The translations under genes were made by a program, and so were the position numbers. Positions 25,001 to 51,400 of a stretch of 64,000 bases of DNA are shown here, piece after piece. The stretch covers positions 32,304,001 to 32,368,000 of the forward strand of contig NC_087245.1 of assembly GCF_037042905.1 (NCBI RefSeq), read 5' to 3'. The notes beneath the pieces are model-generated. The model searched no databases and was not told where the DNA came from. It saw nothing but the letters and a program-made list of their open reading frames with translations. Numbering within the stretch: position 1 is the stretch's first letter; every line of letters starts with the position of its first letter. This DNA is from Lytechinus pictus. Taxonomy: Eukaryota.

Positions 25001-28000
25001 AATTCCGGAAAATAGTCGGGCTTTTTGTACATCCGACCCCCATTTTTCTCAGGTTTTACTTCACTTCATAAACTGACCTATTCACGATCATTTGAGAGCA
25101 TTACATTACTGTCGTAAGAACCAGAAATCAGAGACAGAAAATTTCATGAAGGTCTCACATACATGGGGTTGGACGTACATATTTTATGGAATTGCCATTT
25201 AACAGAGCTGCTGTTCAAAATCAGTATTTTGGTGAGGAAATGCAGTATTTTCAAAGAAATACCACAGGACAACACATAAAATTTCAGATATCGGTATTTT
25301 GTATAAAACCATCAGTATTTGTCAGTAATACTGACAATCAGAACTAGTTGGCATCTCTGCTTTAAGATAATTGGCTCATACTTGACCTGTTGCCAAATAA
25401 TAAATATAAATGAACACTTTGCTTTTATTCTTTGAATAGGATAACAAATATACAAAATAACCTATATAATCATGCTCATGCCAGTGATCTTAAAAGCCCT
25501 ATTCCGGTTTACAGCCATCGACCTTCATCTGCTCAAGCGCAAATTTTAATTACGAAATAGTTTTATATTTTAATACCTTTCCCGTATAAGACAGCGACAC
25601 TCAGTTCAGGGTCCTCCTCAAATCGACAGAATGCCACTTGTAGCTGTTTGGCTGTCTCTGGGTCGACTGCATTCCTAACGTCAGGTCTGTTTATCCCTAT
25701 CAGGCATATCTTATCCTCTCTCTCCACCTCTACCCTCCTCAAAGATCCTATCAATGGTGAAAAAATGATCACAAACGATTGATACAGGAGACAAGTTCAA
25801 AACAACTCTGAAAACTTACTTATTCAATTCAATAAAGTGAACTCAGTATTCTTTTTCTTTATTCTGAAGCACATAGAGAAATGATGACAATTATAATGAA
25901 AAATAAACTGATGTTGATGATGAAAATAGTAAACCGTACAGTAGACTCAGCATACATGTAGGTTGACCTTCCATAAAAGGTTGAACAATTCCGTAACTTG
26001 AAGAATTATTTAATTTAGTTTGTGCAAGATTGTGTTGTTTACATCTTCTAAGTCGAATTTTGTCTCATACCGTCTTACAGTGGTTTTCAAATTTATCCCG
26101 GTGCTGTTGGAAGACAGCGATACTGCTATAAACCCGCTATAAATGCATTAGCAGTAGGAAAGTTATCCCGCTACAGTCCCAGGATAAATTTCATGTACTG
26201 CATTCGCACTGCAGTGGGTGATTTTAGTAACCTCCGGAACAAACACATGCAAGCTTGTGGAGTGACTCAGATATGACCGGAAACACACTGATCTTAATAT
26301 ACAGATCAGTGCCAGAAACACATCTCTGCTCGCTGGATCCTTGATATCAACTTTTTAAAACTGCTTCATTTATTACTTATTTATTGGCTTCTAGTCAGAA
26401 TTTTGTCATTATTTGAAGTGAAAAATATTGTTATCTCATCAAATTTAACATTCACATAGTAACAAAATTGACTTGAATCCATCGAAGGTATTCTAGTTAG
26501 GAAGCCTTTTGGGAAAGGGGTTTAGTAAGATTGGAGCTAACTCCGTGGTTTGTGGATAAAGATATGACTAACTTGTCCAGGTGTTGAGAAATGGGCCCCT
26601 GCATATCAAAGACAAAAAGCAATGATAAACAGAAGCGGATCTAGAGGGGGGGTTGGGGGGGTTGCAACCCCCCCAAAAAAAAAAATCCGGGGACCATTTT
26701 TTAAAATCTTATCTTTTTTTTTAAACTTGTAATTTTATTTTATTCTATTTCTATGTATTTATTTCATTTATAATTATTATTATTATTTCTTTTTGGGAGT
26801 ATTAGGCTAACAGTGCTTATTCCAAGGTCCCCAATTCTTTGTATCTGTGTTGTTAACTGGCCTTACATTGCAGGAAAATGCAACTTAATTTTACAAATTT
26901 TCATGGGGGTTAATTTGGCAACGACCTCTATACCAAAAAGAGTGGTGTTTTAGATGCAAGAAAACGCCATTTTCACACACAGATTTTCAAAAATTTTCCC
27001 TACTGTGGGAGGGGGGACACCCCCCTCCCACACCCTCCCCCCTCGCTCGCTCCGCTCGCTTGGACTCGGTCGCTACGCTCCCTCGCATACCACCCCAACC
27101 CCCCCCTTTATAAAAAGCTGGATCCGCCCCTGATAAAGAATGCATTTAGATGTATGTGTCTGCATTGTTAAGTTTTGTAGGATGATATGTTTTCAAAAAA
27201 TGTAGACATTTGCAAAATGGAAGAAAATAAATATTTATTTGAATTGAAAAAATAGCTTATTAGCTTTCACTTGGTATAACTTTTTCAAACTCAGTTTGCG
27301 CTTCAAATGGGGTCTTAAAAAAACTGTTGCCAGCTTTGTTGGAAAACCACAATTGTAGGCTCTGCCAAAAAATGGTGAAACCTCACTCTCAACTCCAGAT
27401 CAAGGCAGACTCTGACTTAAGAGATACTGATCTGACGGGGACATCACGATAGACCGCGGGTCCGATAGACCGCGGGTCCGTTAGACCGCGGGTCCGATAG
27501 ACCGCGGGTCCGATAGTCCGCGGGTCCGATAGACCGCGGGTCCGATAGTCCGCAGTGTGTGTAAAATTATGATCAGATATATCAAATGTCATCGAGAGGT
27601 CCAAAGGTCAAATGATACAAGGCCATGGGGTTCTATCAGGTGCGGATCCATGGGGGGGGGGGGGCCGAGGGGGAACTGCCTCACCCCCCAACCCCCAGCT
27701 CAAAAAAGAGGGGGGAAGATGGGAAAAGAGAATACAAAAGAGAGTAAGAAGGAGAAAGGAAGAGAAGAAAAAAAGAGAAGAAAAAGGGGAAAGGAAAGAC
27801 AAAGAAAATGGGAGAAGAAAAGGGGAAAGAAGAGAAAAAAGAGAGGAGGGAAAAGGAAGAGAAGAAAAGAAAGGAGAAAGGGAAAGAAGAAAAGAAAGGA
27901 GAAAGGAAAAGGAGGAAAAAGAAGAAAAAAAGAGGAAGGAAGAGAAGAATATTTGAATAGAGGAAGATGGGAAGAAAGATAAGAAAAGAGAGAGAGAGGA

Positions 28001-31000
28001 AGAGGGGAAAAGAAGAGAAGAAAGAGAGAGGAAGGGGGAGGGAGAGAAGAAGAAAAAAGATTAAAAGAAAAAAAAGGGGGAAAGGAAAGAAAAAGGGAGA
28101 AGTAAAGGGGGAAAGATAAAAAAGTGGAAGAGGGAAAAGAAAGAAAAGAAAAGAACGGAGTAAGGAAAAGGGGGAAAAGAAGAAGAAAAAAAGAGGAAGG
28201 AAGAGAATAATATTTAAAGAGAGAGGAAGATGGGAAAAGAGAAGAAAAAAAGAGAGAGTAAGGGGGAGGAAGAGAAGAAAAACGAGAAAAGAGAGAGGAA
28301 GAGGGAAAGAAAAGACAGAAAAAAGAGAAGAAAAGGGGGAAAGAAAAGATGGGGGAAAAGGAGAAGAAAAGGGGGAAAGAAAAGATGGGGGAAAAGGAGA
28401 AGAAAAGGGGGAAAGGAAGACAAGAAATGAGAGAAGAAAAGGGGAAAATAAAGAGAAGAAAAAGAGAGAGAGAGGAGGAAAAGAAGAGAAGAAGAAAAGG
28501 GAAGAGGGAGAGGGGGAAAGAAAGAGAGAAAGAAAGAGAAAGGAAGGAAGGGGAATGAGGATAAGAGAAAGAAAAAAAAAGAAAGAAAAGGAGATGGGAA
28601 ACGGAAGAGGGATGTTGACCTGGACGTCGATTTGATGGCGCCAAAATGACGTTCGAACTATGGGGCGCCGAACTGATGTTTGAACTGGGAGGGGGGGGGG
28701 CGCCAAATTGATGTTCGAACTAGGGGAGCGCTAATTTGAATATTGACCATAATGCGACAAATACATGTTTCAGAGAGGGGGAGGGAGGGCAAAGTTATAT
28801 TTCACATGGGGGCGCCAAGTTTATGTTCAATCGAGGGCGCCAAATTGACCTTGAACTTAGGGGGCTTCATGCAAATTCATTTTCGACCGGGGGCGCAACA
28901 TTGCCCGTATTGCCTGTTTATAGTGAAATATATGTCCTGACCAAAAAACTTAAATTAATGCGGCTAAATTAAAATATCCCGTTTTTACGATAACAGACAA
29001 AAACAATGTTTTCGAGTTTTAAGTCTGTTTAGCGAGATGGATACCCTGTTGAGGGTCACAAAAAAGGGTTATTATCAAATTCAGCTCGCGCTACGCGCTC
29101 GCAATATTTGATTAATGAGGTATGCATCCTCTGCATCAATCCCACATGTAAGTGTTAGTGTTTTTCAAGTCAACATACATAGGCCGATCCAGGGGGCAAA
29201 GATTTTGCCCCCCCCCCCATGGTGGCGCAAAAAAGGGGTAAGAAACAGAAAAAAAAGAAGAGAAAAAGGACAAGCAATTAGAATAAGAATTATACCTTAG
29301 TCCTTCTTAAGTCAGTATATAAAAAAATTGAGCTCGCGCTTCGCGCTGGCATAAATAAATTGTTCAGTTATATACGCGCATCCCGACCTTACAGTTTTTT
29401 ATGCGAACGAGAAGCACAAGCTGAAAATATTTGATATTCTAACCTGACAACTGAAAATGTATTTTTCATTTCATCATTAAAAAAGTTTTCAGCTAGCGCT
29501 TCGCGGTCGCATTAATTTCTTAACAGATATGCTTCGTGTTCATCATAACAACTACTAACATAGGCGGATCAAGGCGGCCCGAGGGCAACCCCCCCCCCCC
29601 CCCTATTGACAGAGCAAATAAAATGGGAAAAACGGGGAAATAAAAAAGGGGGAAAGAAAGGAGAAAAAAGAAGACGAAACATAAAAGGAGGAAGACGAGT
29701 GAATGAAATAAGGTAAGGAGAAGACTTGGAAAACAATTTTTGAAAATATTTAAAGGACAAGTCCACCCCACCAAAAATTTGATTTGAATAAAAAGAGAAA
29801 AATCTAACAAGCATAACACTGAAAATTTCATCAAAATCGGATGTAAAATAAGAAAGTTATGACATTTTAAAGTTTCGCTTCATTTCACAAAAGAGTTATA
29901 TGCACATCCCGGTCGGTATGCAAATGAGGGAACTGATGACATCACTCACTCACTATTTCTTTTGTATTTTATTATGAGAATTATGAAATATTTTGATTTT
30001 CTCGTCATTGTCATGTGAAATGAAGTTCCATTCCTCCCTGAATACGTGGAATTCCATTATTTTAACATTTTGTGGTTCAGGCAAGGAGGTCCTAATCGTC
30101 AAATTCGTAAAAATTGAAATAATGTATAATTCAAACAATAAAAAACAAAAGAAATAGTGAGTGAGTGACATCATCGACTCTCTAATTTGGATGTAACTGG
30201 CTCGTTCATATAACTATTTTCTTAAAAATAAGCGAAACTTTGAAATGTCATAACTTTCTTATTTTGCATCCGATTTTGATGAAATTTTCAGCATTGTGTT
30301 TGTTTGATTTTTCTCTAATGATTCAAATCAACATTTTGTTGGGGTGGACTTGACCTTTAATGTCACTATATTAAAGTTTCGCTCGCGCATCGCGCTCGCA
30401 TTGCCTGTTCGATGAGATACATATCTTGCTCAATATGCTGATATGTAGTTTAAAATATCAAGTTTTGATATCAATATACAAAACATAATTCAGCTCGGAC
30501 ATCGATCTTTCATTATTTTGTTTTATTTACCAATTTATGTTTTTAAGTGCTCTGGAAAATAAATGTCCGTTTTATAGTTTTTTGTATTTCATATAAGATT
30601 CTCTAAATATACCTTTTCAGGTGTCTCGATTGTAAAAAAAAATAACAAAGGCCTATGAGCTAGCGCTGTGCGCTCGCATTTTGATTGGTGAGTTATGTAT
30701 ACCTATTTATTAATTCTATAACAATTAAACTACTTAAATCCCCCCATTAAAAAATTCCGGATCGCGATTTGCGCTCGCATTATTTGCTAAAAATATATCA
30801 ACCAAAGAATCCTATTCATGATTACAAAAATACTTGAAATATCAGGTTTTCAGGCCTCATGTATTGTCAACAAATTTCACACACTCATTAGGCTTAACAG
30901 ATTAATAAATACGAAATAAAATTTGTATGAATTCATAAAAACTAAATTGTCCCTTTTTCAGAAATAAATATTGACAAGTTTTAGGAAAAGAAATAGAAGA

Positions 31001-34000
31001 TAGTCATCATTCTTATATGATGACAAAATGTCCTTAGGCCTAAAATGTCTCGATCCTAGGTCAAAATAATAATAAAATATCAGCTCGCGCTTCGCGCTCG
31101 CATTATTTATATAGTGCTATCAAATTTCCCTATATACACAGTGCTGTAAACAGTGCTTAAATTGACCCTTTTCACATCGGAATTTCAAATATTATTTTCA
31201 GTTCGGGCTCTGCGCTCGCATTATTGATTTTTATGATGAAAAATGAAATGTATTCAGATTGCCAGGATTCTGTCTAACTCTAAAACACGTGCACGCATGT
31301 TTTTTGAGATACAAATGTTGATCTTATTCACAACGTGCTAAAATTATCCAGTTTCGGATCAGAATATCAAAAATGTTCTGCTCGCGCTTTGCGCTTGCAT
31401 TATTATTGTAAGAAGATACCAAAAATTACCCATGCTTTTTCATGATTGACAAACATGAATCGAATGTCCCATTGGGGGATTTGAAATCTCATCTTTTTAG
31501 GTTGGAATATCAAAAATGTTCAGCTCGCACTTCGCGCTCGCATTATTTAATCGTTGAAATATGTATCGTCTTAATGGCTAACTGCAAAACATCCTTAACA
31601 GGTCCCTTTTCGACCAGGCCAGAACGAATATTTAAAATTTCTGCTCGCGCTTCGCGCTCGTGGTAATTATCTAGTTACATACGCGTCCTGTTCAGGTTCA
31701 CAAACATTGCCCAAAATGTTCAATTTTCAGGACAAAATACATGAAATTTCATTTTTAGATTACATAGGGCTTAAGAGATTATTACACATTTATGTTGCTT
31801 ATAAAGTAAATTAAGCTAGGAAATGACTGTTAGGACATGGGCGTTTTGCCCCCCCCCCAAAAAAAAAAAGAGAATCAAGACTAAGCAAAAATAGAGAGAA
31901 AAGGAAAGGGATTAGGATGAAATATAATATTATTTTCCAAATATTATGTCAAAATCTATCACAACCTTGTATTTTTGTAATAAAAATGTCATAATATTTG
32001 CTTGCTTGCTTCGCTCACTGGCAACTTCTTATTAATTTCATGCGATACACCATATCGAGCCCCCTCGAAATTGTTGGCTCATTACGGCACTGGGACAACC
32101 CCTTCAAAGAAACCAAAAAAAAATCAACTTTGAGCGGCCGATCGGGGAAAATATGGGTGAAAAAATGACCCCTCCCCCTATTGGCGGAAGCTGGGTCCGC
32201 CCCTGACTTAGGCTTTCAGGATATAATACATGAAAAATCTATTTTAAAAAAAATCAGATCGAGCTTCGTGTACTCATTATTTATTTAGTCCTTGTGAGAT
32301 ACCTCAATGTGTTTTTAAGAATGAAATCTCAGATTTTTTTAACGTCTACCCATCTCCCACTTCATTTATTTTTTTAACTTGGTGCCGTCGCCACCCCCCC
32401 CCCCCGTGCACCCATGCTGAATAAATACGCCGCTGATGAGGAGAATTTGTCGATTGCTTCGAGATTGCATTATTCCCAAGAGGTTATTTAGTATTCTAAA
32501 ACAACGTACAGTACAGAAACTACAGCTCCCGTTCACACAATATTCTAGTAGGGCCTACTCTGGTTACAAGTTAAACCAAATTGAACCCCCCCAAAAAAAA
32601 AAAAAAATCACTCGTGCTTCGCGCTCCTATTTATATTACATTATATATTCATGGATTTTTTTTTTTCAAGAACAGATGAAAAAGTGGTCTTTGTTTTTTT
32701 TTATGTGATTATAAGATAATTCAAAATCCATTTAAGGCACTTAAGTTAGCCTGACCGGGAGGGAGTGGGCGCCATTTTTCGAAAAGTACACATGGGTGCC
32801 AAAAAAAGGGTCGAATTCCCCCCCCCCCCTCCCTCCCCACGAAATCCTGGATCCGCGCCTGGGTTCTATAACAATAACCCAATTAGGGCAATCACCCCCT
32901 GAAAACTACTTCAAGGAAAATATTATCCCCATATTTTTACCGCCGGGGACTGTTACCCCCCCCCCCCGGAAATTTACCCTCCAGACAATTACCCCGGATA
33001 ATTACCCCTAGTACGGAGCCTTGAAAATGCCATCAACGTGACGACATGGCGTGGTACTTTATCTTGCCATGTCTTAAATAATCATTGGCGGCGGAAGAAA
33101 AAAAATTTAGGGGGGTCCACCTGAAATTTTGGGATGGACACAGGTAAAAAATTTGACAAGCAAATCAACCAAAATTTATAGGAGGGACCACCAAAATTTT
33201 TTGACAAGAAAAAAAAAAGGTTATCAACCAAAATTAGGGGGGGGGACAAAAATATTTTAGTGGGGGTCCACCTCAATTTAGGGGGGGGACGTAGAAAACA
33301 AATTGACAACCAAAAAAAGGGTTCTCAACTAAAAATCTAGGGGGGACCGTCCCCCACCTCAAATTTATGGGGGAAAGGTCCCCCCCCCCGCTTCCACCGC
33401 CTAATTGTAATTAATACGCTTATTATTTCGACATAGCTATATATTCTATCTTGTCAAATCGATATGTCCACATGGCGAGATATGAAGTGTAGGCCTACAA
33501 GTCCCGATATATCGCCATGTTGACATGTAACTTATTTAAGTCGACTTGGCAAGATAAAATATTTCGCCATGTTGACATATAACTTTTTATAAGTGGACTG
33601 ACTTGGCAGGATAACGTATCGCGCCATGTGGACATAATAAGCTTATTTAGTCGACAGGGCAAGGTAAAGTATCTCGCCATGTCGTCAAGTCGATGGCATT
33701 TTAGAGGCTCCGTATGGCGTCGAGAGGGTAAATTTCCGGGGGGGGGGGGGGGGGGTAACAATCCCTGACGATAAAAATATGGGGATAATATTTTCCTTGA
33801 AGTAGATGTCAGGGGGCGATTGTCCGTTGGGTCATCGTTATAGAACCCCATGGACTCGTATCATTGGCCTTTTGACCTCTTGATGACATTGGATCTCACT
33901 ATATCCTGAACATAATTTTACACACACCGCGGACTATCGGACCCGCGGTCTATCGGACCCGCGGTCTATCGGACCCGCGGTCTATCGGACCCGTGGACTA

Positions 34001-37000
34001 TCGGACCCGCGGTCTATCGGACCCGCGGACTATCGGACCCGCGGTCTATCGGACCCGCGGTCTATCGGGCTGTAACCGATCTGTTCCGTATTATTTGCAG
34101 TCCACTACCCTGTTTGCATTGACAGACCTGCCAACCTCTGGAAATGAAAAAGTGTATTTTGTGATAAAAAAAAGTGTATTTTCCCCAAAAAAAGTGTATT
34201 TCATAATAAAATGTGTGGCGCACTCGCTCATCGCGGCGCTCAAACTGCATGCAAGCTAAAATGCGCACTGCTCTTGCAGATGAAAAAGAAAAAACATTTA
34301 AACATGTGTATATCTCACCCTGGTTTTAACAAAATGATTGAAAAAACAACAAGTTACCTAAAATTACATTGGTCTAATAACCATATTTGTGTAAGTTTTA
34401 TGAAATAGAGACTAGAGATGATTTTTCTCAATAAATTACGATTTTGTAAAAAAAAAAATATATATATATTTTTTTTTTACAAAAACATATTTTTAAAAGA
34501 AAAAACGTACTGCCGTATTTTGGTTGCAAAAACGTACTAAATACGCCAAAAACGTACTGGTTGGCAGGTCTGCATTGAGTGACTTGAGCCTATGATAGCC
34601 TAGTTTATCTGCATTTTATTTTATTAAAAGTAAAAACTCAGGGTGACCTTCCCCTGTAACTCAAGGAGCTCTTGATTATGTTTATGCAACACACAATCTA
34701 GAACATCTTTAAAATAACATTTCATTCAGTTTCTAGTTTGTTTGGCCTATTTAAGATAATAATATCGAGCTTGTATAACTTGTTGGCGGTCTAAGTCGTA
34801 GAGCGTGAGACTCATGGGTTAATACGTACTAGAGGGTTTTAGTCTCTTAATAATTGCCTAATAGTACCCCCAACAAGGCTTCATTTTTTTTTTCAGTCAA
34901 AATTTGATTATGATGGCATTGTTTGGCACAATTTCTCTTAAGAATATATATAGTGATTATATTACCAACCGGCCTTGTATTTCCTAACGCATCAGAAAAT
35001 AATTTCAATACACTTAAAACTTTGAAAAACAATAAAATATGGTTGAAATAGCCAATCAGTGATTTTGTAAATTGTTGAATTTTTCCCACAAAAAACACAC
35101 ATTCCGTAATACCATACCATTTTCAAGTGACCAAAATATTTCACATGTGAAGGGGTGTGATCGCAAGCTGATATCACAAAAAAGAAGAATGATCTCGGCA
35201 AAAATTTTACATCTATATTTTTGTAGGTATTTATGTATGGTGCTGTGACCTTAATTCTTGCGTTACCTAATTTTTGAGCACAGTCGAATATCTCAATATC
35301 TAATCAAAATCTGGAAAAACTGATATTATCACCAACAGAAAAAGCGACCCAAAATTACCCAGTATGGTAATTTTCTTGAAGGTAGGTTCTCAATTAGTGA
35401 AAATATTGGTAAAACATTGGCAAATATCAACAAGCTTCGAGAAATCGCTAAGTTTGCAAGCAGAGGTCTCCAAAAATGTAAGTAAAATGTGATACCAACC
35501 AAATTTATGGCATTTTAATTTCCATCTGATACAATTATCTTACCTTTGTCTCCTTGATTTCTTTTCTAAATCTTTGCAAAACCATCATGCCCAAATTAAG
35601 GTCACACTTTTTTTATTATACTTTTTCAGCCGAGCGCGCACAGTCAATTGTCATGGAATTTTGAGATTGCGATACCAGCGAAACCCTTGACCTACTTTAT
35701 AATTCTGTCAAACAAATTTGACTCTGGGATCTTGCCTTCCGTTTGGTATTCATGATTTCGATTAATTTTGTGTGAACTGTGAGAAATTTTTGATTGAAAA
35801 TCAACTTCATGATAATTTTCAAAATGTGCACAAGTTATGGTCACCCCATCATAAGTTTGATGAATTAAAAAAAAAAATTGTTTGATATGATTGAATTTAT
35901 GAAGTGTTCAGTGATACAATCCACTGACATACACCTAGTCTACCCTCAGCAACATAGTCAATGTTAATCAACTAAAACTTTTCAAGGATGAAAGAAATTC
36001 ATGATAAGTCTCCACTCAGGTTTTTCCAGTCAAAGTTGAATGAATTTCAGCTAGTGTGCAGACATCGGACACTTGCACTGCAGTCTGCAACTACCAATAC
36101 ATGACCAAGAACATTTCTTTTTTTGACAGCTGCTCAACTTGAAATAAAAACAATTAGGTAGAGAATTAGAGGATCCCTAGAACTACATTATGTACATATA
36201 ATGGCATATCTTTCATTCATAGAATCTAGCCCACATAGATCTCCAATCGCAAACGTTAGAATCCAACTTATAGACATGCTAGATAGGGGGCCGGTATAGG
36301 ATAAGACAAAAGTCTTTCAAATTTAACTGTTCAACTAGATCTAGACTTTAAATTAATTGAAATTACTAAAAACAAATAGTTTGGGGCCAAGGCAGTCTTT
36401 TTGAAACTGGCTGTTGAGCAAAAAATCAAGCAATTATTTAGATTCTAGATCAGGGATGGTCCAGGCTGGAGATATCAATATCTCAATAAATAGAGTTAAA
36501 TTCACAGAGCAAAATGCTGAAAATTTGATAAAAATTGGGTAACAAATAATGAAGTTATTGAATTTTAAAGATTTGCATTATTCCGGTGAAACAGTTTTAG
36601 GCATGCATGTCTTTATGAATATTTATTAGGTGAGCTGATGATGTCATGATATCCCCAGTTTGTTCTTTTGTATTTTATTATATGAAATTAGGTTTATTCA
36701 AGATTTTGGCCTTATCCTGAAATAAGTCACCTCACTTCTCGTGTGTGTGCGCTCGTCGTGTACAAAGTCAATGGGAGATGAGTCACCGAAATAAACGGCA
36801 GTGAATGGAGTGGTGACTTAAACCATGATAATGCCAAGATTTTTCTACCAAGAACTAAGACAATTGGATTGACAACTGATTAAGTGCATTACAACTTATT
36901 TTATCATAATGCCATGGAGACACATAATTTACATATCATGCATAGGCCCCTATGTATGAAAAAATGAAACATTTATGATTTCGTGTAATAACAATTAACA

Positions 37001-37519
37001 TAAGAAAAAGGAAAGTGGGAATGTGAGTCATGTGACATCATCAGCCCACCTAATGAATATCATGACCATGAGCATTTAATTGTTTTCACAAAATATTGTC
37101 AATTTTGATAAACTTTAAAATTCAATAACTTTGTTATGACTTTAATATGTGTCATCCGATTTTGATGAAATTTTCAGCGTTTTGCTCTGTGAATTTTACT
37201 CTATTCATTTTGATATTAATATTTTCAGCCCGGACCATCCATTTAAGCAAACAGATTGTCAAAACACAGTCATTCACCACTCAGTCAATGACAATGAATG
37301 ATCAGTCTCACTCAGCATGCTCATTTTTCAAATTTCAGTGAGTAAAATAAAAAAAGTTTCCAGGAAAATAGTGTCATTAGTGAGTCGCCCCTAGCCCCCA
37401 CGGCCCACCTGCCTTGTAATATTCTTACCAGATGAACAATATCTGACACCAACTCTCATGACTGCATTTGGTAGAAATGAACGAAATCGCTGTAAAAACA
37501 CCATTTTGTTCGTCAGCAT
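10049..37519 (-). CDS. Crotonase/enoyl-CoA hydratase-isomerase family protein (bacterial EchA-like subfamily), 7 coding exons, 296 aa
   Basis: Exons 37519-37429, 25747-25577, 24562-24474, 23778-23634, 23208-23059, 14745-14602, 10149-10049. All introns are GT-AG with compatible phases, 891 nt total. Motifs: INRPDVRNAVD, GGNFCAGWDL, KPVIGAVSGYAVAGGMELALICDLRVA, RRFGVPLIDG, RALDLILTGRPVDADEALSMGLVNRVV. Ends DFKSKL*. Confidence 0.92.
12270..13340 (+). mobile_element. 5'-truncated, decayed non-LTR retrotransposon (CR1/L2-group-like RT and C-terminal region)
   Basis: DFKKAFDVVPH, SGVPQGTVLGPLLF, RLFVDDC, YLGI, EKVQRRAAR and LGWGSLEESR spread across frameshifts. Confidence 0.9.
13436..13590. mobile_element. 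~150-bp MITE; related copies at ~45590-45750, ~50350-50500 and ~58430-58580
   Basis: TIR core gtttcataaa/tttatgaaac with a central agccaatca motif, recurring across the window. Confidence 0.6.
13610..13885 (-). pseudogene. Decayed RAG1-N-terminus/Chapaev-like zinc-finger ORF, probably a transposon relic
   Basis: HTQNLTELCRFCG...KKFPV...KINIVNDEQMYMP..CMCKKY...HSRTDCKRW fits H-x7-CRxCG-xn-D-x4-(H)P-..CxxC-xn-H-x4-CxxC with several ligands mutated. Confidence 0.55.
14789..15212. repeat. Crypton-like non-autonomous hairpin element; similar architecture at ~54970-55160
   Basis: ~160-bp imperfect palindrome aataatgaatgtt...aacattcattatt, followed by an atatgacac repeat and inverted repeat at the far end. 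Confidence 0.45.
17569..18065 (+). mobile_element. Decayed HINE/Helentron-like element fragment
   Basis: 5' ttttgtctcgcctgc...agcagagcaggacta, followed by repeated aaggtcaaaggtca-type units. Confidence 0.45.
19470..19665 (+). mobile_element. tRNA-derived SINE (decayed)
   Basis: A-box-like tagctcgatcgg and B-box gggttcgattccc, followed by a non-tRNA body. Confidence 0.6.
25203..25359. mobile_element. Small CAGAG-TIR MITE
   Basis: Ends cagagctgc / gcatctctg. Flanks atttaa and ctttaa (6 bp, 1 mismatch). Confidence 0.5.
26630..27132. mobile_element. hAT-like G/C-run MITE
   Basis: TIRs cagaagcggatctag / ctggatccgcccctg with poly-G/poly-C subtermini. Confidence 0.6.
27700..28612 (+). repeat. ~900-bp almost pure purine (GA-rich) low-complexity tract
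   Basis: Nearly all A/G, with short internal duplications such as gaaagaaaagatgggggaaaaggagaagaaaaggggg x2. Confidence 0.95.
29754..30356. mobile_element. Palindromic Kolobok-like MITE with TTAA TSD
   Basis: TTAA|aggacaagtccacccc ... ggggtggacttgacct|TTAA, with ~200-bp inverted arms. Confidence 0.85.
33014..33712. mobile_element. TA-flanked TIR element with internal ~51-bp tandem repeats
   Basis: ta|cggagcct..aaatgccatc / gatggcattt..aggctccg|ta. Repeats cgccatgttgacat... at 33470-33690. Contains a G-rich MITE at 33082-33404. Confidence 0.65.
34123..34572. mobile_element. MITE with perfect 14-bp TIR and 6-bp TSD CATTGA
   Basis: cagacctgccaacc / ggttggcaggtctg. CATTGA at 34117-34122 and 34573-34578. 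Confidence 0.85.
36452..37242. mobile_element. Kolobok-like palindromic MITE (decayed)
   Basis: gggatggtccaggctg / cagcccggaccatcc followed by TTAA. Inverted arms resemble those of the 29754 element. Confidence 0.6.
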
Positions 37520-37763
37520 TTCCTCTACCGTTGGCGTTGACTAAGTTGCTGCGCTGGCTGGATCTAGGCAGCAGGCCGTTGCAGCACGGCGCCCGCCCCC
37601 GACACCGGGGAGCACTGCCATTGGCTCTGCGGCTGCCTCTCGCCGCAGTGTATGTTTTCCTTTTTGTTTTGCAATAATACAGTCACCATTGTTTTTTGTC
37701 GTCAGCTAGTCAAGCAACGTGAACAAACTCTCCATTTTATTTGTTTATATTGTTAATAAAAAT
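37520..37763. promoter_or_regulatory. Putative bidirectional promoter / 5' UTRs shared by the hydratase-like and IPK genes
   Basis: 244 bp between divergent ATGs. Locally GC/CpG-rich, with a GC box (gcccgccccc, 37591-37600) and an inverted CCAAT (ATTGG, 37620-37624). Confidence 0.7.
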
Positions 37764-40700
37764 ATGGAATGTATAGTCAAGGTTGGAGGTAGTGCTATCA
37801 CCAAAAAATTGGAGCTAGAGACGATCAACTCTGACAACCTCGTTAAAACAGCAGAGCTTTTGAGTAAGCTAAAGGGAAAGTTCATTCTTGTACATGGAGC
37901 AGGGTAGGTCTACGGTATTGTAACTCCATCCATGCCGGCGAGGCCGGCCGGGGCCAGGGTAGGCATATGCACTTGACTTGCTTGTGTTGAATGTACAATA
38001 CATGTGTACAATACATGTGTACAATACATGTGTACATGTAGCTACGGAAGGTTCTGACTATCTTCCATTGGTGGAAAGTAATAGTGTGTATTAACTGTCA
38101 CAAAACAAGTCTATCTTTACTTTAGAAAAAAATAATTAAAAGAATTCAATTTAGGCCTACTTAACTTATTAAGTCTTGAGCCTGAGGCAAGTTATGAAGT
38201 TGTCGGACAGATGGAATGCTGAGCCTGAGGGTATGAAAAAAATTAAAATCAAGCATTTGAGGAAATAAGACAGACATTGATTGCCAACCTTATTTTACCA
38301 CACAAGGACCGTAGGAGTCCTAACAACAGAGAACAAGGTTATAGATCTAGGCCTATAACATAACCTTGTTCTTTGAATGAGTGGGCATATGGTCTGGTGC
38401 AGCAAACGTAATATGCATAAATCCTTGTTTGCTTTTGTTGGATCTACTTGCTGCATAAACATGGGCTTCAGAACACAAACAACAGTGCACATTTCTGTGG
38501 CAGCCCAAACAACGTTTGGGTCGATGTCCTTAGGGACACAGTGCATACTTGTACAGAGACAGAAAATTATGCTAGGTTAGCGTCCGTCCCCCCAGCCCCC
38601 AAACCCCCCCCCCCCCCTAGCCCCAGGGACATCTTTGTGTTCGGGTTTCCGCGTTAACCTCCTCCCCCGCTTTCAAAACCGTTCCATGCAGCCCCTGAGA
38701 TAAACCATATGTTTTGCATTATTTATCAATCTTTAATTCTTAAAATTTAACAGCTACAATTCTTCATAAGTGACAATTTTTTGGTTCTTAATGTACAAGT
38801 TTAGTTTTCTGCAGACGACTAAATTTGAATAGTGAGTGTAATTAGTGTGGCGTTACATAAGTTATCCACTCATTTCACTTCAGTTTTACTCATCTACTTT
38901 TCTAAAAGTGATAAAATGGTAAGTTTGAAAGTAAAACTGATGAAAAGTGAGAAGTTGAGAACTAGTCTAGAAAAGCAAATAAATTGATTTTTCTTCTTTT
39001 TCCTTGCAGATCCTTTGGTCATTTTCAAGCCAGTGAATATGGTGTTAGTAAAGGATACACTTCTCTCTCATCAGATGAACAGCTACGAGTTAAAGAAGGG
39101 TTCTGTAGAACAAGACTCTGTCACAAAGGTATCCTTGCTGAAAACCAGGGGATGTGGGGGAAGGGTGTAACAGTACCCGCTGAATTTTTGTTTCCTTTCC
39201 TTTATTATATATTTTTGTTTCAGTGAAAGGTCAAGGAAGAATGGAAGGAACATTTATATTAATGGATGTGATTCATAAATATTTTTTTTTGTTCTTGGAT
39301 CTTACTGGTATCTTCATATGTATAAAATCATTTGTCATTTAATAGTTTTATAATTATGTGATTGATGTAATTATAAATGTTGATGTTGGTCACTAGAAAT
39401 AAACATATATTAAAACAAAAAAGTGAGGAAATAAGAAGAAAAGAAAAAATAATTCTGAGGGGGGTAAAGTATGGCAAATGACAAACCAATTTCAAACTTT
39501 CAAATGATTTATCAATACTTCTCCTGGAAGTGACAGGATATACAATGTTTACAATCTTCTCTTATGAAAGAAAAACTTGTTTTCCAAATTAATTTATAAT
39601 TTATTTTTTTATAGGTTTCTCATTGACAACATTCCTCCTTCAACTAAATTGGTCCACTCCCCCTATTCGGATGATAAGTTATTCTTTGGTCAAGAGATTT
39701 ACCAACAGCTGCATGCAGTCTTGACCAACCATTTAAAAAGTGTAAGATTCAGGACCCCAGTTAGAGTGGACAATTAGATTACAGATTCTCGTAATATGAC
39801 AATTTTTATTGTCAATATTTTTATGCCTAATCATTATTTTTCATTTTAAAAAATCATGTTTGTAGTTGAATCATATGATAGTGGATGCTCTGGTAGAAAA
39901 AGGAGTGCATGCAGTTGGATTCTCTGTAAGTATGAACTCATAGATATACACAGCTCCTCAAATTGGCAAAACTCGTTAATTTTCTACTTTAAAAATATTG
40001 AATGTGTATTAGTCAGAGAGAGAATTAACTGAAAAGTTTCCAATTTGTTTCCAATTTAGGAAACAAATTGTTCATATCAAATGAAGTTGTTCCAAATAAT
40101 GTAGAGGAATGAAGAGATGAATTTTCTTAAGATTTTTTTCTTTTTAACAGTTAGTACTGTAAGTCTGTTCCAAACTTCCAATTGAGTGATATATTCAAAT
40201 TTTACTATAAAAGTAAAGGAAAGGTAATATGATAGCAGTATAATACTAACATTTTATGTTTTGTATAAATGAAAACACATTTTTCAGATCAAGTTTATTT
40301 AATCCAAAAGCCATGAAGAGATGATTTTTATGGGGAGAAACATAGTAAAAACTAATGATGCACATATCTCCCAAACTTACAATCATAGCCCTAGTGATGT
40401 TCAAAATTTACATAAGACAATCGAAGCAAATATACCAAAATTGTATTTGTTCATATTCTTTATTTGATTATTTTATCTTTAAGCCCTGTGGGAGATGGAG
40501 GATGAAAGGAAGAGGTCAAGTGAGGTCAAGCGACTGTGAGAAGGTCAATGAACTATTAGAGGCTGGTTTCCTACCTGTGTTACATGGGGACTGTGTGTTA
40601 GAGGAAGATCTGGGATGTACTATACTCAGTGGCGATACAATTATCCAAGTGAGTATATTAATGATGATGATAACGATGATGATGATAGTGATGATAATCG

Positions 40701-41260
40701 TGATGACGATTGTGATGATGATAGTGATGATGATAATGACGATTATGATGATGATTGCGATGATGATGATAGTGATGATTATGATGGAGGATCTGCTCGT
40801 GATCCCAAGCAATTCAGATTTACAGGCATTTCACTCATAAATGACAACTGTCAATTACTGTCAATTGAATTGTTTTTCTATGATCTTATTTTGATTTTGT
40901 TAGGTATTATGTGAATTCTTCAAGCCAAAGAGAGTGGTCTTCCTATCAGATGTAGAGGGCATATTCACCAAGCCTCCGACCAACCCTGAAGCCAAGTTCC
41001 TTCCCAGGATCCATGTTAGAAAAGATGGCAGTGTAGCAACCAGCATAGCAACCCGACAGCTAGACCATGATGTCACGGGGGGCATCAAGGCAAAGATAGC
41101 ATCGGCGTGCAGCATCGTCTCGCAGAGTGGTGGCGCTATACCAGTGTTTGTTTGTAAGCTTGGGGAACATTCAGCAGAGCTTGCCTGCTTGCGAGGCGAC
41201 AGGAGCGATGCTTATACAGGGACTATCATTGAAGCTGCAGATAACGTTCCAGTTTTATGA
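37764..41260 (+). CDS. IPK: Isopentenyl phosphate kinase-like protein (amino-acid-kinase family), 5 exons, ~280 aa if the exon-2 frameshift is corrected
   Basis: Exons 37764-37903, 39010-39128, 39866-39925, 40484-40648, 40904-41260 (GT-AG). Motifs: IVKVGGSAITKK, LVHGAG/SFGH, PVLHGD, ILSGD, FLSDVEGIF, DVTGGIKAK. Exon 2 ends in phase 1 while exon 3 needs phase 0 (see findings). Confidence 0.85.
40659..40786 (+). repeat. (GAT)n microsatellite in IPK intron 4
   Basis: Imperfect gat/gac repeat starting just after the donor site. Confidence 0.9.
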
Positions 41261-41380
41261 TAAACAAAGAAAATATCATTATGGCCTATTCCCCTAGTCT
41301 GTTTGAGACTATGCCCACATATGCATGCTAAAGCATATGTATGCCGGTCTCCAGTGGGTTGAATATACTGTACATGCAGT

Positions 41381-41798
41381 CAGGGTGCTACATAAGCACT
41401 TGCCCGATTGCCCGGGGCAAGTAAAAGTTAGAGTCAGGCAAGTGTTTTGAAGTAAAGACCAAAACTACTTGCCCAAATTGGGCAAGCAAAATTCTCAGTA
41501 GAATGACCAATATTAGGGTTGATAGGATATATTGACCCTAATTTTGGTCATGGCAGGCAAGATAAAATCTCTTTGGAAAAAGAAATGCAATAACAAAGTA
41601 GATCAGTTCATGTCAAAAGAGAGAAAAAGGTCAATGGTTTATAAAATCGCAAAACTTTCTTTTGAAGAGGTAAAACTTTTTTTTCATTGATTTTTTTTCG
41701 GGCAAGTGAAATAGATTTTTGGGCAAGTATATTCCAACTATTTAAAAATTTACTCGCCCAACTGGGCAAGTGCTTCTAAAAAGTTATGTAGCACCCTG
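41381..41798. mobile_element. hAT MITE with 8-bp TSD CATGCAGT, 120 bp after the IPK stop
   Basis: TIRs cagggtgctacataa / ttatgtagcaccctg, subterminal ttgccc/gggcaag repeats, perfect TSD. Confidence 0.9.
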
Positions 41799-42748
41799 CA
41801 TGCAGTATTCTACAATCACTGCTTTTTTTAGTTCTTTTGTAATCACTGAGATGAGCATGACCATCTATTTGTTTATGTTGGGCTTTGCATGGCAACAGAT
41901 CAAATGATAGTCAAAAATTGGTTTTAGTGGACAATGTAATAGAAGATTTACCACTTGTTAATTAACCTGCAAATTGTTTCATCTAGGCCCCGTCTTACAG
42001 AGAGTTACGACTGATCCAATCAATTGTAACTCTATGGAAATCTATCTGTGTCATAATTTTTTCTACAGGAAATGTGCAAAATGTCCTTTGTAAACAAGGG
42101 AGAACACACTGAACTGTCAAGAAATCAATGAATTTATGGATATACATTCATATCTAGAAAAAAATTTGAGCAAACATGCATTTTATATGTCGATTTTGCT
42201 GGCTTTCCATAGTTGTGATTGATCGGATCAATCGCAAGTCTTTGTAAGACGGACCCCTGGTATATGAATGTGATGCTGTGGTTCATATTAGGAAAGATTA
42301 TCACAGATTGGTATACCAGGCAGGCATACATAACATCCTGGATAATGGATAATCGAGTACATATCCAATCGGAAAAAAAAAGAAAGATCATTTGAAAAAA
42401 TCTCTCTACATCTAATTGTGAAGTGGTCATCTTGATTCTCTCCACATGAGTTTCTCATACTACTCTTTCCTTTGTAATTGCTTAGTTTGAAGCACACCAC
42501 TTATTCTCTTTGCACACATTTATCAAAATCTATCTATTCATACAGATGAGAACACAACTACAACCATTTAAGTTCACAAATATTGATCCATTTTATTAAT
42601 CTTTATACAAATGTACATGTATATATAATTTTTTTACAAAAACTGAATGTAATCTACTTTATTTTCAAATGAAATTATTGTTTTTCTATTAGAGGTCAAT
42701 TGTAGCAATCTTGAAATAAACAATAAGACTAAGTCCTGCTAACATAAT

Positions 42749-45410: not shown

Positions 45411-48400
45411 TCAGTGTCTCTGATCTTGGTCTCCAGACTTATGTTTAGGTTTTGCACCAGACAGAGATAGAGCCAAAGCCTCCACTATAAACATAAAAGA
45501 CACAAATAATATCCTTTCAGCATTATTAAGTTAAGCTTATGTTTATAACATTTTGTGGGGTGCCTGTTGCCAACACATCCATGGAGTACAGGGGAGTGTT
45601 TCATGAAAGGACTTGTCAGACGTTTTATCCGACAAGTCCCACTTTATCCGACAGTTACCATAGTAACAGTACCTCTCAGCCAATCAACTTCAGAGAAAGA
45701 TGTCAGATCTGATAACTTGTCGGATGAAAATGTTGATGAAACACTCCCCAGGTTATTTTATTTTTGTGAGTCCTATGCCATATTGTTTTTTGGCTAGGGT
45801 CGAAACCCCTCTCAAGCACTCTACGCGCAAGCACTCCATTTGTGAGCGTTATGTGCCTAAAGTTCACACGCTATGGACTCTTTATTTTTCTTCAGCAAAA
45901 GTTGGCAGATATGCCAGAACAACAACAACAAACATACATAACATTTTAGGTGTATGTGTGGATACTTCTGACTTGCAAATGAAGGAATAAAGCAAAATCA
46001 AATTCTCTCAGAATTACTTACAATGAGGAAAGGTGCCTCTTCTAATGATATTTGCAAGTAAGGTAGAGAGAAACTCATTGCAATTGAAGAACTCTTCTTC
46101 AGCCTTGGCCACGTTCTCGATGCTAAATGAAAAGAACAAAGATTTAAATATTACCAAAGACATGCAGAAGTGACCATAATAATAATAATAATAAACAGTT
46201 CTTGTATAGCGCATATCACGATTATGAATAATGTCTCTATGCGCTTCCAAAGGACTTGGATATTATTATTACCCCAGCTGTAGCTTGGCAGCCGTAATTA
46301 CTAAGATTACAGCGCACACGCATTTCAAGGAATAAATTCCTGCCAGGTACCCATTCACCTCACCTGGGTTGAGTGCAGCACAATGTGGATAAATTTCTTG
46401 CCGAAGGAAATTACGCCATGGCTGGGATTCGAACCCACAACCCTCTGTTTCAAAGTCCGGAGACTAATCCACTGGGCCACAACGCTCCACACCATGTGTG
46501 GCTCTTGTTTAATGCACGAGTAAAATATTGCAAGAATGTATCTGTCTGTCTGTCTATCTATCTTTCTCATCTCTCTATCTATCTTTCTCATCTCATCTAT
46601 CTATCTATCTATCTAAGTAGTCTTACCTGAAAGTATGTACCCCTGCATCCCAGCGTCTTTGGAAGGTGACAGCAAGGTTGAGGACCTTGGAAACGGCTTC
46701 TCTGACGAAGCTAACCTTGTGGTGAAGCAGACATCTCTCCGATATCTTGGCCAGGTAGGACTTGTGAGCAGCTAGGATCTGGTCCAGGTCCAAGGCTTGG
46801 TCCAGAGCAGCAGAGAACTCCAGACCGGTGCTGTAGAGGATCTGATCAAAAGGAAAGGCCACACAACAAGATCGAGAAGTTATCTCAGGGTTCCGAGCTT
46901 TTCAAGATTCCCAGATTTTTCCCTGATGAAGTTTACAAATTCCCTGATAATTTTTTTAACCCATTCCCAATTTCACATGTTTATAAGTTGTTGCAGTGAA
47001 TTACATGTATTTTCAGTTTAAAAACAATAATGTTAAACTAATTAGCTACACTAAAAAACCACCATAACCAGTCATTCAATGGATGTTGTTTTGATATGCA
47101 ACAAAATATAACAGAGTCTGACTGACTTCCATGCTTTTGACTTTTGGGCCGATCAAAATTCTGATTTTTCGCTCATTTGAGGCATTTTCCCCTAATTTGA
47201 GGTATTTTTAAAATCAAATTCCCTGATTTTTCCCTGACTGGAAAAAGTAAAATAATTTCCCTGATGGGCTGGGAACCCTGTATCTTTATACATGCATGAC
47301 ATAAGCGTACCTTGTGATACGTCATCATGGTCATTTTTCAAAACTGGGTAATGCTCTGTTCAGGACCCAGTGCAATAATTGCAAAATAATGTAATAAGAT
47401 TAAAAGCCCATAAATTTAAGCCAAAAAAAGAGAAATTTTGCAAACCAATTATCGTTCCTTACTTCTTTATATTTCATCTAAGGCTTCAAAGTTATTATTA
47501 ATATCATGTGAACATTTTAATGTAAATAGTGAAATTTATTAGATCTAGGTCAAACCAGTTTAAATTTGTCATCAATCACACATGCTACCTGAACCAGATT
47601 GAAACATCAAATGGTTCTCCAGTTATCGCAAGAATATGACTCAAAATCTAATCCAATCATTGTCACTCCTACATGTGTACATAAACTAAGTTTGAAGTTG
47701 ATCCTTAAACCATTCTTCACTCATCAGCAAAGTTCATACCATCCCTAAAGGCCACCGCACACCTTACGACTGTTCGCGATCCGATTTTGGAACAAATCGC
47801 ACTTTGCTCATTTTCTGAAAATGTGAATGGAACATATCATTTTATTTGATGTTAAAATTAATTGAAAGATATACTAATATAACCATTTTGAAAGATTGCA
47901 AACCTTTATTTTGGAGTAAAGGCCAAATTAGTTTCAAATCGTACGATTGCTATGACGTCATTACGACTAGATATTAAATTTGCTTTTATTCTAAGAAGGA
48001 TGATAGCATAGTCACAGATTTGAACATAGGTATTCGTACGATAATTTCGAACAATACACAGTAAGATATTCCGAGTCTCAATATTAGCATCAAATTCTAC
48101 ATTTTATTCTGAAATCGGGTCGCAGACCAATCGTAAGGTGTGCGGTGGCCTTAACCCTTTCAATGGGACCAGTTTTTGACCGACGTTCGTGGCTAAATCC
48201 TTACCCTCGTCATGAGATAGTTATGCACAGCATTGACAAAGTGCATGAGTCGGAAGCGCAGGATGAAAAGACGATGGATAAGAGGTAGCTTCTCCTTAAG
48301 AGCCTCATCTGCTTGACCTCTATCCAGTCTCCCAAGGTCGCTATCTTCAGTCAAGTGTCCAATATTCACTGAAATAAGTAGATCTAACAAAGAAAAATAT

Positions 48401-51400
48401 AAAAATAGGTTCTTTTTAAAAATTCTTAAAAGATGAAATGTTTTCTCGATACATGAATCTTGCCATATTAAACAATGAATATCACATTGTAGGTCCCTAC
48501 AATCTCTTCTTGCATTTACACTATAATTGTATTTTCTTTTTTATGTTGTTTAATTGTACTCTATTTTTTTCTGAATTCAAATTGTTTTGCATGATGGTGC
48601 CCAACCTACATGTTATTTTCTCAAACTTCCTGGGAGGCTCCTTATCCAATGTTTTTGTCTAAATCTGTATATTTATGTAATTTTATGACTGACTGACTGA
48701 AATAAACTTGAATTGAAATCAAACTGAATAAAAAGGATGGAAGGAAAGAATGATACTAATTTCTCGTACAGATTTTATTTAATCACGCGATTGTAAAACT
48801 TGATGCGCAACTTGCAAGACTCTATTTCATTTAGAACACACACACCTCCCTATTACTGTTCCTATAGAAAACTGTCAAAGATCGCAATTTATTGAATGGA
48901 TCTGAATTGAATTCTTATCCACAAATGTGATAGGCCCTTGGCCTTTGCTAGTCTCCTTATACTCTAAATTCTTATATGTTCATTCTACAAAATTATGTAA
49001 ATATTGAATTAAGGAGATTTTGAATAAGTAGAACTTCCATAAGTCGAATAATTGTCTAATTTAAAACAATTCCTGTATTAAACAAGTTTACAATCAACCA
49101 ATCAAATTGATATAAACCGTCATTGCATCATTGCTACTGTAACAACTTTTATGAAACAGGCCATAGATTATGCAAACATGTGTTAATAACATCTCCTTGG
49201 TCAAATTTCATCCAAGTCAAACAGATTTGTGAGGTCCGAAGAAATTCGACTTCGGAAGAGTTACTGTATATCTATCTCTATATTTTTTGGTAAATATTGT
49301 TTGTATTTAGGTCTCTTTTTAATTGAGGCTACGATATATTCACCTGGAAACCGTAATTGTTGAAGGCAATACTGAGCTCTCTTTACTTGGAGTAGGAACC
49401 TAAATACTTGATTGTAGATATCTAATGCATGGTGATGAATCACTATATCCACCGGCCATGGGACCTGTAAAAGAATAAAACCGGTACTGTTTAATCATTA
49501 ATGCAATAACACCAACCGGTGTGTTGGCTCAGTTGATAGAGCGTCCGTCTCACAACCGGGAGGTCAGGGGTTCAAACCCCGGCCGCGTCAAACCAAAATA
49601 CGTTAAAAGATGGGAGTTGCTGCTACCCTGTTTGGCGTTCAACGATTAAAGGGATAGAGCCTCATCGTTCTGGTGCTGCACAGTGGCTGCAGGGCCCACG
49701 GTCAATTGGGCAAAGCAAATTTTCAGAGTATTTAATTTCATGTCTATTTCGAAAAATAAAATATGGATTTTTATCATTTTTTCATCATTTTCATCATATA
49801 AAACATATGAAACGGATAAATTAACACATTACAGAAATCAGGCCAATACAATATTTTTCTTTTATTCAACTTTACAACTACAATTTTTTACAATACAAAA
49901 GAAGAATCACTCTTTCAGATAGGCTAATGTTAATTTCTAAAAACATTTTTGAAGACTTGATTGTTACTTTGGATATCTACGGAGAACCTTCCCTGGCAAC
50001 TCATTGTTGGTTTTGGGAGGGTAGTTGGCATTTACCTTATAATGCAAGGTGAGAGAGTCTAGTGCATGAATTGGTTGAGTAGCCATCTTCCCCGTCAGTC
50101 TCTCAGGCTCTACACTCACGATTATCCTAGTCAGAATTAGGAGACAAATTACATATCAAATGAGAATACAAGAAACTGTGTTGATTTTATTTGTAAATTT
50201 GTGTTGAATAATCATGTTCTTATATTCTTCATAAATACTTAATTATAAAAAAGAATTGTGTTGATATTTATCCTTGGATCACAAGTACTAACATTAGCTA
50301 GGTCAATTCCATATTTTCTTCAGGAATAGAAGCTCATAATGATTGTTTGGGGCCCATTTCATTAAGGACTTACAACTGTTTATGGCAACTACCATGGTAA
50401 CAGGGCTCAGCAGCCAATCACAATCAAGGTTTCCACGGTAGTGACCATGATTGCAAATTTACAGCAGCTGTATAAAGTCTTCATGAAAAAGGTCCCTGGT
50501 TAGATCTTTTCCAAGATTAAAAAAAAATGAAATTCATAGTTTGTTCTCAAAATATGCAGCTGAAATATTTGCCTCTGTTATGGCCAAATCCAACACATAT
50601 TGCTCATTTATGATAAATTTCAATTTTAAATACATACTGCAGCTAATATCAATATGATTCATACAATGTGCATATGATTCGATGGGAAATTGCTGCTTGG
50701 TCTACACCCACTTTGTCTTCTTGTAGTTTGGTCTCATCCCAATTGCTCTAATCCCAGTTCATTTTCAACTAAGTCCTTTACTAACCATGTTTGTCTAATT
50801 TTGTACTTTATAAACATACCTAGCAGCTTCTTCTGGGTACCTGACACTCAGTGTTTCTTGTAAATGGTAGTTGAGGTTTAGCGTATCCTGCCAAGACTCA
50901 TGCCGACGTATCTTATCAAACAGCTCGGAGTAGAAATCATACATCACATCACCGGCCTCAAGGAGAAAGAAACGCTGTTTAAAAAGAATTTCATGAAGAA
51001 CGAGAAAAAGAAATAAAATGCTGTTTAATGACAACAATAGACCAATTGACAATTGCATTCTGCACAGGAGCATTAAGAGGTCATTCAAGATAAACAATCA
51101 AGGTGGTTTTCAAAGTCACTGACATAAGCATTTGTGATTTGATGATTATTCATATATCCCTCTTAAGTAATTTCTGTCATCACATCCACTGAAAGAGTAA
51201 CAAAGTGTTTATAATCGTTAGTATTTGACAGTAGCTAAAATAATAGTCAATATACCAAAAGCAGACAAATTTCAAAGTCACTTGAAAGAGCAATCGTCAT
51301 GTAATTGATATTTTTTTATGATTATTGACTGAAAATTTCAATAAAAACAGTCATTTTGTGAACCATGGAGTATATTGGCAAAAGACACAAACATGGACAT

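Follow-up and report, generated by a model that had tools for sequence, protein, structure and literature searches.

Gene structure and genomic context

The window analyzed here, i.e., the whole stretch of 64,000 nucleotides from Lytechinus pictus contig NC_087245.1, contains a gene of the isopentenyl phosphate kinase (IPK) family on its forward strand. The gene runs from 37764 to 41260 as five collinear exons separated by four GT..AG introns (Table 1), and carries the motifs KVGGSAITKK, HGAG/SFGH (with intron 1 in between), LHGD, SGD and DVTGG. A spliced gene with the full IPK motif set had been proposed in the original prediction, and every motif named there was found. That gene model was right in structure and motifs, but it left unstated the frameshift described below, which is merely hinted at by the mention of a "corrected ORF".

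Raw stranded reads from three RNA runs labelled as this species (X17, X18 and X19; about 6% of each sampled, at low depth) covered the exons on the expected strand. Exons 2 to 5 are held by one spliced 843-nt contig of a further RNA run, X1. A raw-read row spanning intron 4 was absent, and exons 4 and 5 adjoin in the X1 contig (record 2). The word share of the gene in RNA runs X1-X4 was 0.23 compared to 0.24 expected for the exonic part, which is a lead only. In the L. pictus genome the gene has a single locus; all four matches fall there, at approximately 32.34 Mb of a chromosome-scale contig, and a second IPK copy or an alternate haplotig was thereby ruled out.

Table 1. Features of the IPK gene and its surroundings (positions in the window).
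Feature	Position	Strand	Evidence or remark
Reverse-transcriptase element, fragment	12376..13315	+	RVT_1, E 9e-13
Enoyl-CoA hydratase/isomerase-family gene, spliced	23042..37520	-	head-to-head with IPK
5' untranslated part	37701..37763	+	RNA: X1 contig 1 covers 37701-37901 with 0 differences; first mates of raw reads on minus strand
Exon 1: ATG, K6-x-G8-G9, K15, H44-G45-A46	37764..37903	+	IPPK_Arch E 7.6e-8
Intron 1, 1106 nt, GT..AG, divides HGAG/SFGH motif	37904..39009	+	12 spanning raw reads (6+4+2)
Exon 2, 119 nt: SFGH with signature His51; frameshift inside	39010..39128	+	IPPK_Arch E 0.057
Frameshift site, codon 84: CT dinucleotide repeat short by one unit	39116..39120	+	raw reads, contig X1, homolog column
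Intron 2, 737 nt, GT..AG	39129..39865	+	X1 joint and 13 raw reads
Exon 3, 60 nt	39866..39925	+	aligns with XP_041468498.1 residues 88-107, 2 differences
Intron 3, 558 nt, GT..AG	39926..40483	+	13 raw reads (3+5+5) and X1 contig
Exon 4: P138-VLH-G142-D143 and S156-G-D158	40484..40648	+	IPPK_Arch E 7.5e-10
Premature stop of frameshifted reading, codon 125	40537..40539	+	109 nt 5' of last exon junction
Codon 147, Glu	40601..40603	+	Asp in 79/79 homologs; alignment column, raw reads
Intron 4, 255 nt, GT..AG, with GAT-rich simple repeat	40649..40903	+	X1 record 2 joins exons 4 and 5
Exon 5 coding part: D218-V-T220-G221-G, K226, G268-T269, stop TGA	40904..41260	+	IPPK_Arch E 1.1e-10
3' untranslated part, enters multi-copy repeat at ~41381	41261..41408	+	X1 record 2 extends to 41408; depth up ~100-fold past 41369
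Multi-copy, highly transcribed repeat	41381..41800	both (RNA)	depth ~100-fold higher
Gamma-tubulin complex component gene, spliced	46626..63095	-	Pfam GCP_C_terminal in 2 scanned frames
P-element-like transposase, fragment	61230..62069	+	TNP-like RNase H, E 4e-7

The multi-copy repeat follows directly after the IPK 3' region. On the other side, the enoyl-CoA hydratase/isomerase-family gene has its likely first exon, with a possible mitochondrial leader, at about 37400-37520, with approximately 240 nt between it and the IPK start; that it belongs with the exons further downstream is presumed. RNA reads lie on the opposite strand at this first exon, and the arrangement suggests that IPK and the enoyl-CoA hydratase-family gene share a promoter. 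The IPK gene lies upstream of the gamma-tubulin complex component gene, and the window further contains fragments of two transposable elements.

Family assignment

IPPK_Arch (NCBIfam) was the best family for four of the five exons, which match in profile order (positions 2-46, 48-78, 113-159 and 161-229), and the motif set is therefore not due to chance. The single-exon scores are each below the 120-bit cut-off set for a whole protein; the cut-off was tested on a close relative, the 94% similar L. variegatus model XP_041468498.1, which scored 179.3 bits. Exon 3, with its 20 amino acids, had no match to any NCBIfam family, while Pfam AA_kinase matched three of the five exons. An HMM search against the subfamilies of the amino-acid kinases (AAK) had been advised as a check, and here the other families (NAGK/ArgB, ProB/P5CS, PyrH, aspartate kinase and FomA) did not reach their cut-offs: XP_041468498.1 scored at most 46 bits against them (argB 46 of 151, FomA 40 of 550, pyrH_arch 27.5 of 158 and proB 17.7 of 186 bits required). 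In a PDB search the best 7 of 13 matches were IPK-type (E 1e-34 to 9e-20), followed by FomA at 8e-10.

Table 2 of Dellas et al. (2013; PMC3857490) gives 11 invariant IPK residues (M. jannaschii K6, G8, G9, K15, G54, H60, P140, G144, D213, T215 and G216) in addition to the partly conserved K221, G253 and T254. Their counterparts in the window protein are K6, G8, G9, K15, G45, H51, P138, G142, D218, T220 and G221, and K226, G268 and T269, respectively, as mapped by motif spacing alone from that table, on a read-through with X at the break. The signature His, H60 in M. jannaschii and reported as catalytically essential (PMC3857490), is H51 in the GAGSFGH motif of the window protein, and 79 of 79 homologs have His at this column. 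Collectively, the best-matching profile, the IPK-type structures, the retained invariant residues and the grouping with animal IPKs described below support the identification of the gene as an IPK, as far as sequence can tell, which upholds the identity first proposed.

Origin and distribution

The window protein was aligned with 48 animal, 11 plant or algal and 20 prokaryotic homologs (80 rows in total; homologs partly drawn from the best 120 of 738 proteins). Its median identity was 46.5% to the animal and 30.8% to the prokaryotic sequences. In a quick IQ-TREE analysis of 56 of the 80 rows (24 omitted for speed; SH-aLRT support only, no non-IPK outgroup), the window protein is sister to that of L. 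variegatus, represented by XP_041468498.1 (SH-aLRT 99), then groups with Diadema (92), and is placed within animals (84) and eukaryotes (99). The phylogeny with archaeal, plant and animal IPKs that had been called for thus nests the window protein among the animal enzymes, and the urchin gene was likely inherited vertically.

Contamination of the assembly, or recent acquisition of the gene from archaea or algae by lateral transfer, was rejected on the tree and the genomic context. Nothing except the archaeal fame of the family speaks for such an origin, while it conflicts with a chromosome-scale contig (~32.34 Mb) that has spliced animal genes on both sides, with the four introns and with the placement among animal IPKs, which leaves it a negligible probability. 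The introns had been put forward as an argument against contamination from the start, and the surroundings and the tree now strengthen that argument.

The absence of IPK from mammals, also part of the original prediction, is too strong a claim. While no IPK was reported in 35 mammal genomes (Dellas 2013; PMC3857490), the RefSeq model XP_038605717.1 of the echidna Tachyglossus aculeatus is an IPK homolog with 151 bits to IPPK_Arch, the His signature and a position in the vertebrate clade (99). It has no N-terminal KxGG motif, and the model is therefore incomplete or decaying. A literature search on monotremes did not return the IPK phrase among the matches listed, which is weak evidence. Further vertebrate IPK homologs come from an alligator, a turtle and two frogs, Discoglossus and Ascaphus, and these extend the vertebrate list of 2013, in which no frog appears (PMC3857490).

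Among close relatives, the L. variegatus "isopentenyl phosphate kinase-like" protein XP_041453450.1 (290 aa) has the same motifs and is identical to the window protein at 264 of 280 aligned residues (94%). In contrast to this model, the window allele has a frameshift at codon 84, carries E147 and reaches its stop 10 residues sooner. A similar tail, ending in GLFP, lies in another frame just downstream (window 41252-41300), which suggests that small indels altered the C-terminal end past the conserved GT motif. The second L. variegatus model, XP_041468498.1 (226 aa), itself stops after DVTG. The two models are near-identical and lie on contigs of equal listed length, and the cut in the shorter one is what a 1-nt loss in the G run would produce; they represent haplotypes left uncollapsed, a duplicate or an error. 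With a full-length model also at hand for L. variegatus, it became less plausible that the gene is broken in both Lytechinus references.

A frameshift, probably genuine, in the assembled allele

The spliced coding sequence of the window is 841 nt long and out of frame. Exon 2 is short by 2 nt near 39119, where the frame is lost at a column in which 47 of 48 animal homologs have Ser, and the reading stops after 124 residues. The window allele hence has no full kinase-domain reading frame, and a 124-residue product without everything from P138 onward would lose function. The RNA data gave two different pictures of this site. At the joint of exons 2 and 3, all 13 raw reads listed (2, 7 and 4 in X17, X18 and X19, respectively) have two extra letters and are in frame, and the deletion form of the window was found in none of them. 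The contig X1 record 2, at a depth of 12.3, is 843 nt long and composed of pieces of 505, 165, 62 and 111 nt that add up to this length with no other letters and no gaps relative to the window across the deletion; this contig thus carries the deletion.

One alternative is that the gene is intact and the deletion an assembly error. Dinucleotide repeats are error-prone in long reads, and the deletion lies in a CT repeat of this kind; each of the 13 raw reads over the joint keeps the frame, and the catalytic motifs are all kept. Against this, the spliced X1 contig shares the deletion and is otherwise identical to the window. Further, no fewer than 17 exonic positions, counted as at least 9 non-synonymous and 8 synonymous codons, distinguish the raw-read samples from the window, and these samples therefore represent other haplotypes. 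The assembled haplotype is also marked by D147E at an invariant column. Taken together, we regard an error in the repeat as unlikely. The assembled allele is probably a real null, a conclusion drawn from one contig of one run, and as contig X1 may derive from the very animal that was assembled or from its relatives, it is perhaps not independent of the assembly.

The D147E change is the only deviation of the window protein at the 27 columns conserved in ≥97% of the 79 homologs, and 44 of 48 animal homologs deviate at none of these. The raw reads have Asp at codon 147 (13 of 13, 12 of 12 and 1 of 1). The window allele also has L194F at a column conserved in 44 of 48, and raw reads covering the D147E and L194F sites show neither change. 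Judged from the sequence, both substitutions look like signs of decay in the window allele. For the gene overall, the listed differences between the window and the raw reads (at least 9 non-synonymous and 8 synonymous codons, relative to 643 and 194 sites) give a per-site ratio of about 0.34, which shows that IPK is not evolving neutrally.

Two observations bear on whether the allele could still be expressed. As a rule, a message that stops 109 nt ahead of its final junction should set off nonsense-mediated decay, and the presence of the contig with its premature stop at depth 12.3 despite the expected decay speaks against the null reading. The window allele could also give a working enzyme by alternative splicing around the deletion. 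On paper there are in-phase donors after 39166 and 39172 and two open acceptors, and the acceptor at 39882 would restore the frame at the cost of about 6 residues and could rescue part of the message. The X1 contig, on the other hand, takes the normal acceptor at 39866, none of the rescue joints (39882, 39166 and 39172) is among the RNA joints seen, and the segment that would be lost or altered includes S84 (47 of 48) and L88 (79 of 79). Splice rescue was rejected on these grounds and is highly improbable.

We read these data as a transcribed null allele in the assembled haplotype alongside intact alleles in the species. A literature search that covered few subscription journals found no null IPK allele reported in an urchin. 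It is conceivable, at a tentative level, that a null IPK allele segregates in this living sea-urchin species, possibly in viable homozygotes, which would make it a case of IPK loss in progress and a natural knockout.

The mevalonate pathway of the urchin

The original prediction had inferred that this animal has an isoprenoid-phosphate salvage or alternative mevalonate (MVA) route. As the assembled allele cannot give a whole enzyme, this inference would apply to the species and perhaps not to the assembled haplotype. Its salvage half is plausible. The alternative MVA route itself was not borne out by the genome, in which one PMK locus and one MDD_C locus with three exon matches were found; the MDD_C search picked up Haloferax, of a class with MPD-like residues, as its control. 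The search for decarboxylase paralogues that had been suggested thus returned a single locus, with residues of the classical MDD.

Six positions separate MDD from MPD (PMC3857490, Table 4). In the urchin enzyme these phosphate-pocket positions are a Tyr at the end of the first exon, Lys and Ile in the next exon, two Ser in GSGS and one Ser in the TSST motif, i.e., the eukaryotic MDD pattern at 6 of 6 positions and not Leu/Arg/Ala/Thr. The S. epidermidis numbering of these residues presumes that chain 3qt5 is shifted by 5 residues, and such a shift agrees with each of the three matches. On contig C2 of the same genome, at about 51.526 Mb (piece 1-1666, minus strand) and close to the 3' part of the MDD gene, we observed a 555-codon open frame that resembles a LINE endonuclease/reverse transcriptase by eye.

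The features of the Chloroflexi and haloarchaeal alternative pathway, which are an MPD-type enzyme with Leu or Met/Tyr for Lys21 and Arg for Ile27 and no PMK, were not found in the urchin. The modified archaeal MVA pathway is defined by a UbiD-family decarboxylase together with a phosphomevalonate dehydratase of the aconitase-X type. A six-frame search for UbiD (PF01977) gave 0 matches in the L. pictus genome and was positive in 9 of 14 control genomes; a blank is no proof of absence here, as six-frame searches may miss short exons or a decarboxylase of an unfamiliar family.

These results bear directly on whether IPK completes a true alternative route in the urchin, in which MVAP would be decarboxylated to IP and then phosphorylated. 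A cryptic MPD among unknown eukaryotic enzymes was left possible by Dellas et al. (PMC3857490), which would allow such a route, while the lone MDD_C locus despite a search able to detect Haloferax, the six MDD-type pocket residues, the presence of PMK and the blank for UbiD beside nine positive controls all point the other way. We therefore consider the alternative route very unlikely.

Discussion

Collectively, we find it fairly probable that the window carries the single, five-exon, transcribed and vertically inherited IPK of L. pictus, that intact alleles salvage IP and DMAP beside the classical pathway, and that the assembled allele is a likely null by a 2-nt frameshift. In the proposed salvage, PMK and MDD would make IPP, and IPK would return dephosphorylated C5 units to the diphosphate pool. 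The IP and DMAP may arise from hydrolysis of IPP and DMAPP by a phosphatase or Nudix enzyme, or from the diet. The intact enzyme would pass the ATP gamma-phosphate to IP or DMAP using its signature His. Lysines act in the IPK transition state. From the analysis as a whole, salvage of IP/DMAP seems likelier than the alternative mevalonate route, and the intact urchin allele presumably has kinase activity. Being partly redundant, such a salvage step could allow null alleles to drift, in keeping with the many times that animal lineages have lost IPK independently.

The salvage role has been discussed for animal IPK in general, where recycling, control of the IP-IPP balance and an IP-like substrate were named as options and losses were ascribed to partial redundancy (PMC3857490). 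Our literature search, which covered few subscription journals, returned no in-vivo evidence for IPK salvage in any animal. The main in-vivo substrate of the intact enzyme might instead be a different small phosphate or phosphonate, IP-like or dietary. The AAK family phosphorylates varied substrates, FomA is the next relative in the PDB, an "IP-like substrate" was named as a possibility (PMC3857490), and the patchy retention in animals has no explanation. Set against this are the pocket motifs, which the urchin protein shares with plant and archaeal IPKs, and the two animal orthologs that are efficient IP kinases with low-micromolar KM, namely B. floridae (KM 13.3 µM, kcat 27.2/s) and T. adhaerens (KM 3.1 µM) (PMC3857490). 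Such a main substrate other than IP is hence improbable, and salvage of IP and DMAP is the role we favor.

The urchin gene resembles three known systems to different degrees. Compared to archaeal IPK (NCBIfam NF040647; PDB 8u0k, 7n9d, 3ll9 and 3k4o), it shares the AAK-family sequence, the His signature and the best PDB matches, with an identity of about 31%. The archaeal IPK route may be partnered by a UbiD-type decarboxylase. The archaeal enzyme ends the main route, with an MPD or UbiD-type partner, and neither partner was found in the urchin genome. Plant IPK, which works with Nudix hydrolases (Henry et al., 2015, 2018, via PMC8248349), belongs to the same family and likewise stands beside a complete classical pathway, in a model of IP/IPP balancing; it is retained in all plants, whereas IPK is patchy in animals. 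Closest are the animal IPKs of Dellas et al. (2013; PMC3857490), who list the enzyme in Strongylocentrotus purpuratus and Paracentrotus lividus and assayed those of Branchiostoma floridae and Trichoplax adhaerens. These belong to the same family, keep the 11 invariant residues and occur in genomes that also encode the classical PMK and MDD, and the B. floridae RefSeq IPK is 48% identical to the window protein. In contrast to those enzymes, the urchin protein is known here from its sequence, and a null allele is not described in the sections of that paper covered here (PMC3857490).

The IPK family, its presence in sea urchins and the activity of animal IPKs are already known, all published in 2013 (PMC3857490), and as a family member the gene is ordinary; the added value lies in a possible natural knockout. 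Annotation from this assembly would yield an IPK that is truncated or mis-spliced, which by the evidence reflects a real allele and not the state of the species. If animals with null and with intact alleles can be bred or genotyped, a comparison of their pools of IP, DMAP, sterol, ubiquinone and dolichol would test the role of IPK in animals, and such a comparison would also show why many lineages lost it. If true, a segregating null would be a ready natural knockout for the in-vivo role of IPK, a question that was open in 2013 (PMC3857490).
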